The notes beneath the pieces are model-generated. The model saw nothing but the letters and a program-made list of their open reading frames with translations. It made no database searches and was not told where the DNA came from. From sequence record NC_102605.1: DNA of 50,633 nt. One strand, given 5' to 3'. Position numbers and translations under genes: made by a program. This stretch comes from a phage. This document shows positions 27,977-32,639 of this stretch, in pieces (position 1 is the stretch's first letter; every line of letters starts with the position of its first letter).

Positions 27977-28324
27977 TTATCGCATGGATGTAAATTCTTC
28001 CGTGAAAGTTGCTTTGACTTCCTGAGCGGTTGGGCTTATTGGCGTTAGCCCTACCGTTCCGGCTTTAACCGTAAACAACCCTAAATCACCATCCGGCATC
28101 CTCCACAAGAAAGGCTTTAATCTGTGATCCGTCATGAACGCTTTCACTTTTTTATAATCAGTGCCAGCGTAAACAATAGAAAACTCCCTCCGCTCCGTGT
28201 TAAATCCAGAAGACGCCTTTTGGCGATAACCGTTACCAAAAACAACTTCCCTGTCGTTATTGGTAGTTGTCATTACACCGCCGCCGCTCTGAATCTGCGT
28301 ACACCAGGTAAATTCATCTAACAT
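27977..28324 (-). CDS. Minor tail protein (lambda M-like)
   Basis: 115 aa, immediately downstream of the tape measure gene. Confidence 0.7.
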   Translation of the reverse strand: MLDEFTWCTQIQSGGGVMTTTNNDREVVFGNGYRQKASSGFNTERREFSIVYAGTDYKKVKAFMTDHRLKPFLWRMPDGDLGLFTVKAGTVGLTPISPTAQEVKATFTEEFTSMR

Positions 28325-31233
28325 TAAGCCCTCCCATGAACAAAATTATAAACCTCGCCACCTTGCGAGCATGAACGTTGAATCATTTCGGTGAAAATCA
28401 TCTTAATACCAGTTTCCATACCTTTTGGATCTTGACCGTTGTCAATGTTAACGTTGATATCACCAAATGCAAATTGCGATGCACCGCGATTGATGCCAGC
28501 GCCGCCAGTTGTCACGCTCCCTACTTGACCGCCGTTTGCATAACCTCGCATCATGCGATACAGGTTTTTGGCTCCGATCCTTTGCGTTGCCTCTTTGGTG
28601 AAAACAAACTCACCCTTATGAACCACTCCAGCCGGATCATATTTTCCACCGTCGCCAGTATAACCGCCGCCAGCAAAACCAGCACCGCTTAAAAGGCTCC
28701 CAAGCGTCCAGGTTGAGCCGCCCATCATGCCGGAAATGCTATTGAAGATAACCATCTTTGTGATCATCTGAACAATCAGGCTAATGATCGATTTTGCAAA
28801 GTCTTTGAAGTTTGCTTGTCCAGTAGTCAAAAAATCAGCCATTTGTTGCGATAGGCCGTTTAGCGCCTGGCTCGCAATGTTGCCGATATTATCATACATG
28901 TTCATTGCTTCCTCGCCGTACTCCGCAAAGGCATTTTTAGCGCCAGCTAACCAATCAGCGCGTTTAGCATCTTCCTCTTTATAGCGATTGTCTAATGCAT
29001 CCATCATTGCGGTGAGTTGCGGATCTCCTTCCTTGCCTCCTTTAGCAAGATAATCAGCCTCAACCTTTGCACGTTCCGCCGCTCTTGCTGCTTCACGCTC
29101 GCTTAATCCTCTTGTTTTGGCTAGTGCTTCTGTTGCTGCTTTCTGCTGCTGGATAAACTTGATTGAGCTATCTTGCAACTGATTCAGGCGAGTTTGTGCA
29201 ACAATCTGATCGCCTAAAATAGCTTTTTGTTCAGCCATCGCCAGGATCTTATCTTTGTTGGCTAAAATGCTTTTTTCTTCATCAGTAAGTTGCCGTTTTG
29301 TTGAGGCTTCTTGCAAAATCTGAATTTTAGCTTGTTCAGCCCATAAAGATTTACGTTGCTGGCTTATGGTATCCGTGATCGTCTTGTGCTCTTTCAAAAC
29401 TCTTAATTGAGTTTCTAACGCCAGGATATCACGCTGATATTGTTCTTCCAGCTTATCGCCAGCCGATACATTAACTTTTTCAGCCTTTTGCTTTTTATCG
29501 CGCTTGGCTAATTCCTCGGCTTCCTTCCTGATATTCTCTTTTGTTTTTGTTGCATATTGCTGTTCAACCGCCGCACGATTTTTCATCATGTCAATGTAAC
29601 CCTGCTCGCCTTTTTTGACTCGCTCGTTACGTTCAGCAATTGATTTTAATAGCTCCTTGTTGTTCTCCTTAGCGTTATTGATAATCTTCTGTTGCTGCGA
29701 AATAACAGAATCGCCAACATTATCAAGCCCTGGTATTTTTTGCATCGTTTTTGTTGCCGACACAATAAATTCACCAATGAGAATATCACCCTGATTAAGC
29801 AAATATCGAACTTGCTCAACGGTTCCGGCTACAACGTCAATAATCAGGTTAAGCGCCGCCAGCGTGTGATCCCCAACCCAACCCCATGCATCTGACGCCC
29901 ATTTTTTAATGTTCGTCCACATCTTTTCTAATGGCGTTGCGGAGTCTGCCAGTTTAGCTAATCTCTGATCCATAACATCAGCAAATAATTTTGTCGCCGC
30001 CGTTACTGCTTCCGTTTTGCCTTTCGTTTTCTCCAGGTCTGCAATATAAGTTAACTGCCCTTCACTTAAAAAGTTGAATTGCTCGTTTAGCTCTGCAAGA
30101 CCTTTAACCGGATCGCCAGCAATCTTATTAAAGTAATCGGTTATCTTGTCGCTTGATTCACCCGTTACCGTTGACCACTGAGCGGTAGTCTTTGTGATCG
30201 ATTTAATCTGATCAATCGTGAATTTGCCGGATTTTGCAAGCTCTGTTGCGATGGATCGGATGTTTCCCATCGTCGCATCAGTGCTGTTATTAATGTCCTG
30301 CGCCAGCTTATCGAACTGTGCGCCGCTTGTGCCAGCATATCCACCAGTCAGCACCAACGCCTCTTGCAAGTCACGTTGCGACTTATACGCATCATAACCA
30401 GCCTTAACAAGAGCACCCATTGAAACGGCTAAGGCGGCAAGGCCAACGTTTACCGGATTCAGAAACGACAACAGCGCTTTAAACGTATTACCAACGCCGC
30501 CGAAAGAATCCTTAATCTGTCCACCCTGCTGGATTGCAACCAACCAAACAGGCATACCGGAAGCCAGCGACGTTACAACGTCAGTGATCTGAGCCGGAAG
30601 TTGCGCCATAGCTTGCTTGTATTGCCCCGCGCTAATTCCGGTTAACTTCATCTGTTTTTCTTGCGCTTTAAGCTGTGCAATGAATGGCGCGGCCTGAGCA
30701 CTTACGCCAAGTTGCGCCGCTTTCATTTCCAGCAATTCGGCTTTTGTTTTTCCAAGCGCGGCGGCTTGCGATTCCAGATCCGCAAGGAAAGTTTTTCCGG
30801 CTAACGCTGCTTTCTCTTTGGCTTTTGATTCCTCAAGTGCTGCGCGGCCTTCTTCCGTTAACGCCTTTTTATTACGCTCCAGCTTACTGATCTGAGTTTC
30901 CAGCATACTCCCCAACTGGAAAAACGTTTCATCGGGAACAATGCCCTTTTGCCATAGCTTATCAAGATCACTTGCGGCCTGAGATAGCTTGCGCATTTTC
31001 GCCGCTGTCGGATCAACAGTGTCCTGAATGCGTTTAAATTCACGGCTCTGTTTCGCCAATTCATCAGCTAATTGTTTTGCTCTTTGCTTTGCAATTTCTT
31101 CCTCATTAACAAAGCTCTCAACGCCTTTCTTTGCTTCGTCGTTTGCTTTTTTAAAGTCCTGCAATGACTTTACAGCCCTGTTTAACTGCTCGACGTTAAC
31201 GCCAAGTGTTAAACCTGCAAATTGTTCAGCCAT
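28324..31233 (-). CDS. Tail tape measure protein
   Basis: About 970 aa, extensively alpha-helical/coiled-coil, Gly-rich hydrophobic C-terminal segment; GAGGG RBS. Confidence 0.85.
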   Translation of the reverse strand: MAEQFAGLTLGVNVEQLNRAVKSLQDFKKANDEAKKGVESFVNEEEIAKQRAKQLADELAKQSREFKRIQDTVDPTAAKMRKLSQAASDLDKLWQKGIVPDETFFQLGSMLETQISKLERNKKALTEEGRAALEESKAKEKAALAGKTFLADLESQAAALGKTKAELLEMKAAQLGVSAQAAPFIAQLKAQEKQMKLTGISAGQYKQAMAQLPAQITDVVTSLASGMPVWLVAIQQGGQIKDSFGGVGNTFKALLSFLNPVNVGLAALAVSMGALVKAGYDAYKSQRDLQEALVLTGGYAGTSGAQFDKLAQDINNSTDATMGNIRSIATELAKSGKFTIDQIKSITKTTAQWSTVTGESSDKITDYFNKIAGDPVKGLAELNEQFNFLSEGQLTYIADLEKTKGKTEAVTAATKLFADVMDQRLAKLADSATPLEKMWTNIKKWASDAWGWVGDHTLAALNLIIDVVAGTVEQVRYLLNQGDILIGEFIVSATKTMQKIPGLDNVGDSVISQQQKIINNAKENNKELLKSIAERNERVKKGEQGYIDMMKNRAAVEQQYATKTKENIRKEAEELAKRDKKQKAEKVNVSAGDKLEEQYQRDILALETQLRVLKEHKTITDTISQQRKSLWAEQAKIQILQEASTKRQLTDEEKSILANKDKILAMAEQKAILGDQIVAQTRLNQLQDSSIKFIQQQKAATEALAKTRGLSEREAARAAERAKVEADYLAKGGKEGDPQLTAMMDALDNRYKEEDAKRADWLAGAKNAFAEYGEEAMNMYDNIGNIASQALNGLSQQMADFLTTGQANFKDFAKSIISLIVQMITKMVIFNSISGMMGGSTWTLGSLLSGAGFAGGGYTGDGGKYDPAGVVHKGEFVFTKEATQRIGAKNLYRMMRGYANGGQVGSVTTGGAGINRGASQFAFGDINVNIDNGQDPKGMETGIKMIFTEMIQRSCSQGGEVYNFVHGRA

Positions 31234-31248
31234 ATATTTTACCCTCAT

Positions 31249-31275
31249 AAAAAAAGCGCCCGTAGGCGCTTTATT
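31249..31275 (-). terminator. Intrinsic terminator/attenuator between the GT chaperone and tape measure genes
   Basis: aagcgcc-tacg-ggcgctt followed by seven T on the minus strand. Confidence 0.6.
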
Positions 31276-31902
31276 TGTTATTTGCTTGCATCATTTCCAG
31301 TGCTTTTTGTTCCATGATGCGCAAGTCATTTAAGGCCATTTCTTCATCGTCTATTTTATAGATTCTGAATAACATAGGCAAAACATTATAATCAAAACCG
31401 TAAGCACCAGCGCCAGCACTACGCCACTGTGTACCCATCGCGCAAAATATATCCCATGATTGCATCATACTTTCATCAAATATGACCTCTGGCGGATCTT
31501 CTCCTTCATAGTCTGCGCGGGTTAATCCTACGGCTTGCAATTCTGCATCTGTCGGCGGTTTCTGATAATACAGATAAACCGCCAGTTTTAGTTTTTTACG
31601 CGTTGCCCTGCCAGCGCACTTAAATAAGATCCCATAAGAGCCAGCGCCGCGCCAGGATAATAATCAACTAACAGTTGCGCGTTTTCTTCGTTGAATTCTT
31701 CTTCCAGATCCCAACCAACGGCAACATTCATGATGAATTCAGGATCTTTAATACCTTCTTTCTGGTAAAGCTCTTGAATCTCGCTGGCCTTTTTATGCTT
31801 AACGGTAAACACAATTTTTTGCTCGTTACCATCCGGCAATACAAATTTAACTGGAAGTTTGAAATCTGGAAGCGGGGCAAGAGTCAATTTCATTTTAGCC
31901 AT
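31271..31902 (-). CDS. Tail assembly chaperone GT fusion made by programmed -1 ribosomal frameshift
   Basis: Slippery heptamer A-AAA-AAC at 31591-31597 just before the G stop; -1 frame is open into ORF 31271..31540. Confidence 0.6.
31588..31902 (-). CDS. Tail assembly chaperone (lambda G-like)
   Basis: About 104 aa, between the major tail and tape measure genes; AGGAGA RBS. Confidence 0.65.
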   Translation of the reverse strand: MAKMKLTLAPLPDFKLPVKFVLPDGNEQKIVFTVKHKKASEIQELYQKEGIKDPEFIMNVAVGWDLEEEFNEENAQLLVDYYPGAALALMGSYLSALAGQRVKN

Positions 31903-31947
31903 TGTCATTTCTCCTGAGTGGTTAAATATTGAGGTGATATTACATCA

Positions 31948-31980
31948 AATAAAAAAGGGACGCAATGCGCCCCTTTAAAT
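31948..31980 (-). terminator. Rho-independent terminator immediately after the major tail protein gene
   Basis: 10-bp stem (aaaggggcgc/gcgtcccttt with one G-U pair) followed by ttttttatttg on the minus strand. Confidence 0.7.
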
Positions 31981-32639
31981 TAAGCCTGAGTAGAAGGCAA
32001 GAAAGTAAATCGACCTTTCAGGGATACCGACAAAGAAACGGTTTCCATTTCGTTTACCGCCGTTTGTGGGATCTCGTTGAAAGAAAGCACACCAGCCCAA
32101 AGGCGCATTTCTTTTGCTTTTGGTACATACATGCGCAATGCTTTAACGTCGCCGGATTCGTCAGCCTTACGCAAGAGCGGATAAATCGGATTATCGTACT
32201 CATGCGCAAAGGTGTAAGTCAGTGACACCGCGCTTTTATAGGTTGGTAACTGCTGCTCCTGGTCATCGCTCAAGCACTGGTAATTGTAATACTGCTGCTC
32301 GCCGCCGTCCTGCCCCAAGTCCTGTACGCATGGGATCTCTGTCCATGATTCAATTTTCATAACGCTACCAGTAGCGCCGGACGGAAAAACGTTTTCATCA
32401 GTGGTGTCGATACCTTCAAGCGTGAAACTTGTGTTATCGCTAACCTCTTTAACTCGCAGTACACGATCAAGAAGTTTACCCCACGTTGATACAGTGACAA
32501 TCACATAATCACCTTTTTTCAATCCGCCAGTATCAGACGCGGTAAACACCGGATCTGTTGCGTTGCTGATTGCTGTTGCTTTGATTTCTGAGCCGCGAGT
32601 ATTCTCAATAAAAATCTGTGATCCGTTAGGTAAGTGCAT
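31980..32639 (-). CDS. Major tail (tube) protein
   Basis: Position upstream of the G/GT chaperones, followed by a strong terminator. Confidence 0.6.
   Translation of the reverse strand: MHLPNGSQIFIENTRGSEIKATAISNATDPVFTASDTGGLKKGDYVIVTVSTWGKLLDRVLRVKEVSDNTSFTLEGIDTTDENVFPSGATGSVMKIESWTEIPCVQDLGQDGGEQQYYNYQCLSDDQEQQLPTYKSAVSLTYTFAHEYDNPIYPLLRKADESGDVKALRMYVPKAKEMRLWAGVLSFNEIPQTAVNEMETVSLSVSLKGRFTFLPSTQA

Follow-up and report, generated by a model that had tools for sequence, protein, structure and literature searches.

A Tls-like, T1-family siphophage very probably expresses its tail assembly chaperone gene by programmed -1 ribosomal frameshifting

The window analysed here, a 50,633-nucleotide stretch of phage DNA (NC_102605.1), carries a tail chaperone gene pair, referred to below as G and T, that lies together with both of its flanking genes on the minus strand, in the order major tail protein, G, T and tape measure protein (Table 1). 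Across the 1001 nt compared (31100-32100), nucleotide identity reaches 98-99.3% to phages Brooksby, FSL SP-126, Stevie and Tls, with CF1 and LL5 also among the near-identical Tlsvirus matches to this region; by this measure of sequence identity, the phage would be assigned to the genus Tlsvirus (Drexlerviridae, Tempevirinae). G and T are two overlapping open reading frames (ORFs), flanked by the genes for the major tail protein and the tape measure protein; this arrangement is the first characteristic of the G/GT-type chaperone pairs of long-tailed phages (Xu, Hendrix and Duda 2004).

The G ORF encodes 104-106 aa and closes at TAA 31590-31588. Its true start is likely ATG 31902 (MAKMKL), which gives 104 aa and makes G shorter than the mechanically called ORF; the homologues of G in our alignment of relatives begin at MAK..., matching this position, and the Stevie record places a ribosome binding site where AGGAG (31915-31911) is found in the window. 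The T part, read in the -1 frame, begins with CTA (31591-31589), ends at TAA (31273-31271) and includes a mechanically called TTG ORF (31271-31540). For the tape measure gene, the start is likely ATG 31233 (MAEQF) and not 31248, which falls within the T-run of a terminator; in Stevie, the tape measure protein starts 38 nt past the last base of T. The G/T pair is bracketed by two terminator-like hairpins, which may reduce transcript levels step by step through the tail module.

Table 1 Features of the tail chaperone locus and its neighbours
Feature	Coordinates	Strand	Basis
Major tail tube protein gene, upstream neighbour	31980..32639	minus	Pfam Phage_tail_3, E 3.8e-65
Intrinsic terminator-like hairpin + T-run, between major tail gene and G	31954..31976	minus	Annotated as terminator in Stevie
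Shine-Dalgarno AGGAG for G	31911..31915	minus	Sequence; 8 nt before ATG 31902
G-like tail assembly (tape measure) chaperone ORF, zero frame	31588..31908	minus	Pfam Phage_TAC_4, phrog_17368/569
Slippery heptamer A AAA AAC, X XXY YYZ phase, G stop directly after	31591..31597	minus	Sequence, conservation
Hairpin, possible frameshift stimulator	31553..31584	minus	RNA fold, 6 nt 3' of heptamer
T part, -1 frame extension, 106 codons	31271..31591	minus	Translation, Pfam DUF1799, phrog_17368
Intrinsic terminator-like hairpin + T-run, after T stop, before tape measure gene	31253..31272	minus	Annotated as terminator in Stevie
Tape measure protein gene, downstream neighbour	28324..31248	minus	Pfam TMP_2 + Tape_meas_lam_C

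Both halves of the pair match Pfam families of tail assembly chaperones. G matches Pfam Phage_TAC_4 (PF08748) with an E value of 2.3e-37 and a score of 128.4 bits, above the curated gathering threshold of 21.1, and T matches DUF1799 (PF08809) with an E value of 1.2e-12 and 48.3 bits, above the threshold of 26. A single PHROG profile, phrog_17368, spans both parts: positions 1-107 of its 213 cover G and positions 109-213 cover T, so the fused protein is already a family in the PHROG library, while G alone also matches phrog 569. We found no NCBIfam family for either G or T, no match at E values up to 1 in a PDB sequence search with the predicted fusion, and no Rfam family at gathering thresholds in a scan of the whole window.

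A reading of the letters alone had proposed that the G-like ORF ends in GTA-AAA-AAC-TAA, with a slippery heptamer just before the stop and a -1 frame open from there into the ORF at 31271..31540, and had pointed out that the T part was listed merely as a separate ORF with a non-ATG start. Inspection of the strand bears out each of these points. The end of G reads ...CAA CGC GTA AAA AAC TAA, the heptamer sits in phase at 31597-31591 and directly abuts the stop codon, and no stop interrupts the -1 frame between 31663 and 31274, which is also the frame of the TTG ORF that the ORF list gives at 31271-31540. This frame opens at 31663, 24 codons upstream of the G stop, and closes at 31273-31271. The slip site and the TTG are separated by 57 nt (31597-31540), or 19 codons; a search of this interval for a -1 stop codon found none, and the observation that the sequence-only reading had itself named as grounds for abandoning the proposal is therefore absent. 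A +1 shift was also considered and is excluded because the +1 frame across the stop is closed in the window within a few codons upstream (-5 nt).

The heptamer is not special as a string, since the window contains 19 copies of AAAAAAC where about 29 would be expected, and the chance that a 24-codon overlap holds some in-phase X XXY YYZ heptamer is about 9% for this genome. Its context sets it apart. The window's ORFs of 100 aa or more contain 60 in-phase heptamers, of which only one is followed by a -1 frame that runs at least 30 codons past the stop of its own ORF; that one is the A AAA AAC of G, whose -1 frame runs 106 codons past the stop.

To place this locus among its relatives, we collected loci from IMG/VR via the G protein and the G alignment, 39 in a first set and 79 in a wider one that comprised 71 unique sequences with 38-100% amino acid identity. 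In the first set, A AAA AAC followed by TAA, together with a -1 ORF of 101-106 codons, is present in all 38 intact loci. In the wider set, 59 of the 71 unique relatives carry A AAA AAC followed by a stop (TAA or TGA), and the remaining 12 have another motif at the same position, namely G GGA AAC TAG (6), A AAG GTC TAA (5) or A AAA GCC TAA (1). The motifs in these 12 (G GGA AAC, A AAG and A AAA) are all shift-prone, so that a conserved slippery sequence lies within the overlap, the second characteristic of the G/GT type. The replacements fall at loci L114-L121 (G GGA AAC TAG), L075, L082, L084, L086 and L087 (A AAG GTC TAA) and L111 (A AAA GCC TAA); these alternative slip sites at one position make up a natural series, in which the A AAG lineage is without the downstream hairpin.

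Conservation of the site contrasts with synonymous variation around it. The codons that precede it vary freely (GCA/GCG/GCT/GCC, GGG/GGC/GGT/GGA, CAA/CAG/CAC and CGC/CGA/CGG/CGT), and the residue before Lys-Asn may be V, A, E or T among the relatives, though the third base of its codon is always A. The last three G codons show no differences between clades, whereas about half of the other codons for identical residues differ. In two relatives (L028 and L042), the -1 frame opens just 28 nt before the stop, which confines any shift to the last 9 codons.

That G and T might simply be two unrelated ORFs in chance overlap, or one gene split by a sequencing indel, is the least credible account of the locus. 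The chance of about 9%, given above, of an in-phase heptamer in such an overlap would allow for the first, and single records do carry nearby indel errors (Salmonella phage 36 and Tls), which would allow for the second; the same two-frame arrangement and stop position nevertheless recur across many phage genera and metagenomes, in over 70 independent sequences, and we regard both as excluded because this conservation is so broad.

The T side of the junction was compared in the same alignment. Upstream of the site, the -1 translation of the relatives is not conserved as a protein; downstream, it is conserved as a protein from codon 1 onwards, beginning LKRAVYLYYQKPPTD... This bears on whether T might be made separately, with no fusion, by independent initiation at TTG 31540 or at an ATG further on, or by ribosomes that reinitiate once they have terminated at the G stop. 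Such a reading would agree with the mechanical TTG ORF at 31271-31540 and with several records that annotate an ORF of its own, for example Brooksby gp16 and Tls GJGTLS_44. Against it, inspection of the sequence found no Shine-Dalgarno motif before TTG 31540 or the internal ATGs, and a search for a conserved start codon in the T part of the 71 unique sequences found none: the TTG is not conserved, and the first possible start falls anywhere from codon 5 to codon 51, and 24 of the 71 have none before codon 42. The 17-41 residues that precede the candidate starts are conserved as protein from the slip site, and the heptamer is itself conserved at synonymous positions. T is thus a second ORF that lacks a start of its own and whose protein is conserved from the shift site, the third characteristic of the G/GT type. 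The wandering start codon, the missing Shine-Dalgarno motif and the conservation from codon 1 mean that independent initiation fails to explain T, and we consider a separately made T very improbable.

A frame change in the transcript, and not on the ribosome, would yield a fusion as well. RNA polymerase might add one A in the A6 run in some of the transcripts, giving the junction ...VKK-LK..., and the site is indeed a homopolymeric A run, which one distant relative (L042) carries as A7. The deposited fusions AAR09274.1 (Tls), AIX12284.1 and AWY04347.1 (Stevie/LL5) and AAP50000.2 (T1), which by exact look-ups are joined inside the A-run, are written ...VKK-LKRA..., with Lys at the junction where tandem slippage predicts Asn (VKN-LK); this too would suit polymerase slippage, though it reflects an annotation convention only. 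Useful slippage by bacterial RNA polymerase usually needs runs of about 8-9 or more, and A6 is shorter than that. Moreover, the relatives with G GGA AAC, A AAG GTC or A AAA GCC have only 3-4 A's and still fit the rules of ribosomal slippage, and polymerase slippage would require neither the conserved C at position 7 nor the conserved phase. The short run, together with the ribosomal-type motifs retained in relatives with 3-4 A's, makes polymerase slippage unlikely, at a probability that we put low but above that of a separate T.

The sequence-only reading had also suggested looking for a stimulatory structure downstream, and the search for one yielded a hairpin that begins 6 nt after the heptamer and may affect frameshifting. 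This hairpin (31584-31553) consists of 8 bp (UGGCGGUU/AACCGCCG), a bulge, a further 4 bp and a 6-nt loop. The RNA fold of 31520-31600 (81 nt), which contains the hairpin and a small second stem, has an energy of -19.2 kcal/mol and a z score of -2.3 against dinucleotide shuffles. When compared with synonymous-codon resamples that keep the T amino acids, the hairpin reaches z scores of -1.7 to -3.9 in the Tls-like, T1-like and several Klebsiella-phage lineages, and the fold is more stable than the resamples in 27 of 56 unique sequences. It is absent in the Rtp-like, JK06-like and other lineages, where synonymous changes or changes in the QKPP motif disrupt its arms.

In the alignment of the hairpin, 72% of the cells are paired, and the covariation score is no better than that of a slid control; the wobble positions pair with fixed bases, and compensatory change is hardly possible because most of them pair with fixed first or second codon positions. 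The codons within the hairpin are about 70% identical, compared with about 55% in the rest of T, a difference that is not significant in 27 of the 28 clade pairs; the pairwise synonymous-conservation test gave p = 0.03 in the one other pair, uncorrected for multiple tests. Since the hairpin is kept in several lineages and lost in others, we grade it as a possible stimulator, plausibly a lineage-specific one. An upstream stimulator of the dnaX Shine-Dalgarno type was considered separately: AGGG occurs in GCA GGG CAA and ends 8 nt before the heptamer, and was rejected because other clades have GGC, GGT or GGA in place of the GGG codon.

The window carries a private substitution at the base of the hairpin. 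At 31584 (minus strand) it reads T; Brooksby, Stevie, T1 and the remaining relatives that we examined carry G or some other base, and T is found at this position in none of the 49 other unique sequences of alignment A4. The change converts CGG to CTG, so that residue 3 of T is L and not the nearly invariant R, and turns the G/G mismatch of Brooksby, Stevie, Tls and T1 into a U-G pair; other lineages have G-C.

Taken together, the sequence comparisons lead us to conclude with high confidence that the tail assembly (tape measure) chaperone gene of this Tls-like T1-family siphophage is subject to programmed -1 ribosomal frameshifting, although we infer the ribosomal nature of the shift, its efficiency, the parts played by hairpin and stop, and the functions of the proteins. 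Most ribosomes would translate G (104-106 aa) and terminate at UAA 31590-31588, and a small fraction would slip back by one nucleotide on A AAA AAC. The slip could be in tandem, with tRNA-Lys moving from AAA to AAA in the P site and tRNA-Asn from AAC to AAA in the A site; alternatively, tRNA-Asn could slip in the P site while the adjacent stop UAA stays unread in the A site. In either case, the -1 frame would then be read as CUA AAA CUG..., and the product would be a GT fusion of about 210 aa (counting G from ATG 31902) with the junction ...GQRVKN-LKLAVYLYYQKPPTD... (...GQRVKN-LKLAVY...). The hairpin 6 nt downstream may raise the rate of slippage. In our survey of the literature on this phage family, we found no report of experimental detection of the fusion protein.

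By analogy with lambda, many copies of G would coat the tape measure protein, and the T domain brought in by the rare GT would recruit the major tail protein, so that the G:GT ratio would be fixed by translation. Ribosomes of E. coli slip far less readily on A AAA AAC than on A AAA AAG, and the efficiency may accordingly be low here as well. This fits a chaperone that is needed at just a few percent: in lambda, a shift of about 3% suffices (a 30:1 ratio). A haloarchaeal virus, too, employs A AAA AAC for its g-t frameshift.

A more specific version of the mechanism is possible, and we offer it as a tentative suggestion that we consider rather doubtful. In the T1 family, the stop codon that invariably follows the slip site may contribute to the signal as a 'shifty stop', with P-site tRNA-Asn slipping as long as UAA occupies the A site, and individual lineages may tune the G:GT ratio, the Tls- and T1-like phages by a lineage-specific downstream hairpin and some Rogue1/JK06-like phages by a stronger site (A AAG) without a hairpin. 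If true, this would be a mechanistic variant of the lambda paradigm.

The frameshift as such is already known in this phage group. We do not claim it as new, because it has been annotated in near-identical T1/Tls-like phages: Tls, Stevie and LL5 have the same heptamer, stop and -1 ORF as the window, and their long product is annotated as a two-piece joined CDS (tfmS/tfmA in Tls). Joined frameshift CDSs at the A-run are carried by the records of Tls, T1, Stevie, LL5 and U136B; the frameshift is mentioned as a conserved feature in the genome papers on Stevie and U136B, and the U136B announcement states that the slippery-sequence product was annotated manually.

The locus is annotated inconsistently. 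In the records of Brooksby and others, T appears as a hypothetical protein of its own, and RefSeq gives G, GT and T one and the same name, 'tail length tape measure protein'. In Salmonella phage 36 (L024/L073), the locus is shorter by 1 nt and its G ORF is truncated to 59 aa, and in Tls (L011/L050), G reads IVLPFKHKK against IVFTVKHKK in all relatives; these oddities look like indel errors in the deposited sequences. GenBank MG065675 and about 19 other 'Campylobacter phage' records, labelled as phages of Campylobacter jejuni, match the enterobacterial T1-like G/T region at about 87% nucleotide identity. At least one of them, MG065675, is unannotated, and the host label looks doubtful.

The main value of the analysis lies in correct annotation: the TTG ORF at 31271-31540 is best regarded not as a separate gene but as the C-terminal part of a predicted frameshifted chaperone of about 210 aa, and several public records of close relatives split or mislabel these products. 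Beyond annotation, the family offers a natural series for studying how the G:GT ratio is set, with four alternative slip motifs at one position, an adjacent stop and a hairpin in some lineages. The comparative picture adds no new principle.

In lambda, the genes for the major tail and tape measure proteins flank two overlapping ORFs that encode gpG and gpGT; a small share of ribosomes shifts by -1 close to where the first ORF ends and so makes the fusion protein (Levin, Hendrix and Casjens 1993; Xu, Hendrix and Duda 2004, 2013, 2014; summarised in PMC5009743). The window resembles lambda in its overlapping ORF pair, in the gene position and in a -1 site near the end of the first ORF, and its tape measure protein is lambda-like as well (TMP_2 + Tape_meas_lam_C). 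The sites differ: that of lambda is G GGA AAG, five codons before the stop, whereas that of the window is A AAA AAC and abuts the stop. The protein families differ too, with PF08748/PF08809 in the window and PF06894 (gpG)/PF06223 (gpT) in lambda. Comparison of G and T with their lambda counterparts gave no detectable similarity by BLASTP (E 12 and 0.19) or by hhalign (probability 0.1-0.3%), and neither window protein matches PF06894 or PF06223 in Pfam, which lambda's own proteins do match. The suggestion that the locus reproduces lambda G/GT hence holds for organisation and mechanism, judged by gene position and the recoding characteristics described above, but does not extend to sequence similarity, of which none is detectable. 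For this reason, G and T are termed analogues of lambda G and T by position and predicted mechanism, outside lambda's protein families.

Two E. coli frameshift signals are also comparable. In insA-insB' of IS1, the identical heptamer A AAA AAC is a proven low-level -1 site within the same group of hosts, with reduced synonymous variability at the site and no established stimulator; the gene encodes a transposase, whereas the window gene encodes a predicted chaperone and has a hairpin 6 nt downstream and an adjacent stop. E. coli dnaX (A AAA AAG) resembles the predicted signal of the window in that the -1 slip takes place on an A-rich heptamer with a stem-loop downstream. It differs in its A-site codon, the much more efficient AAG, where the window has AAC, and in possessing an upstream Shine-Dalgarno-like stimulator, at whose place the GGN codon of the window's relatives varies (GGG, GGC, GGT or GGA). 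Finally, the dnaX shift shortens its protein, whereas the shift predicted in the window would extend G into T.
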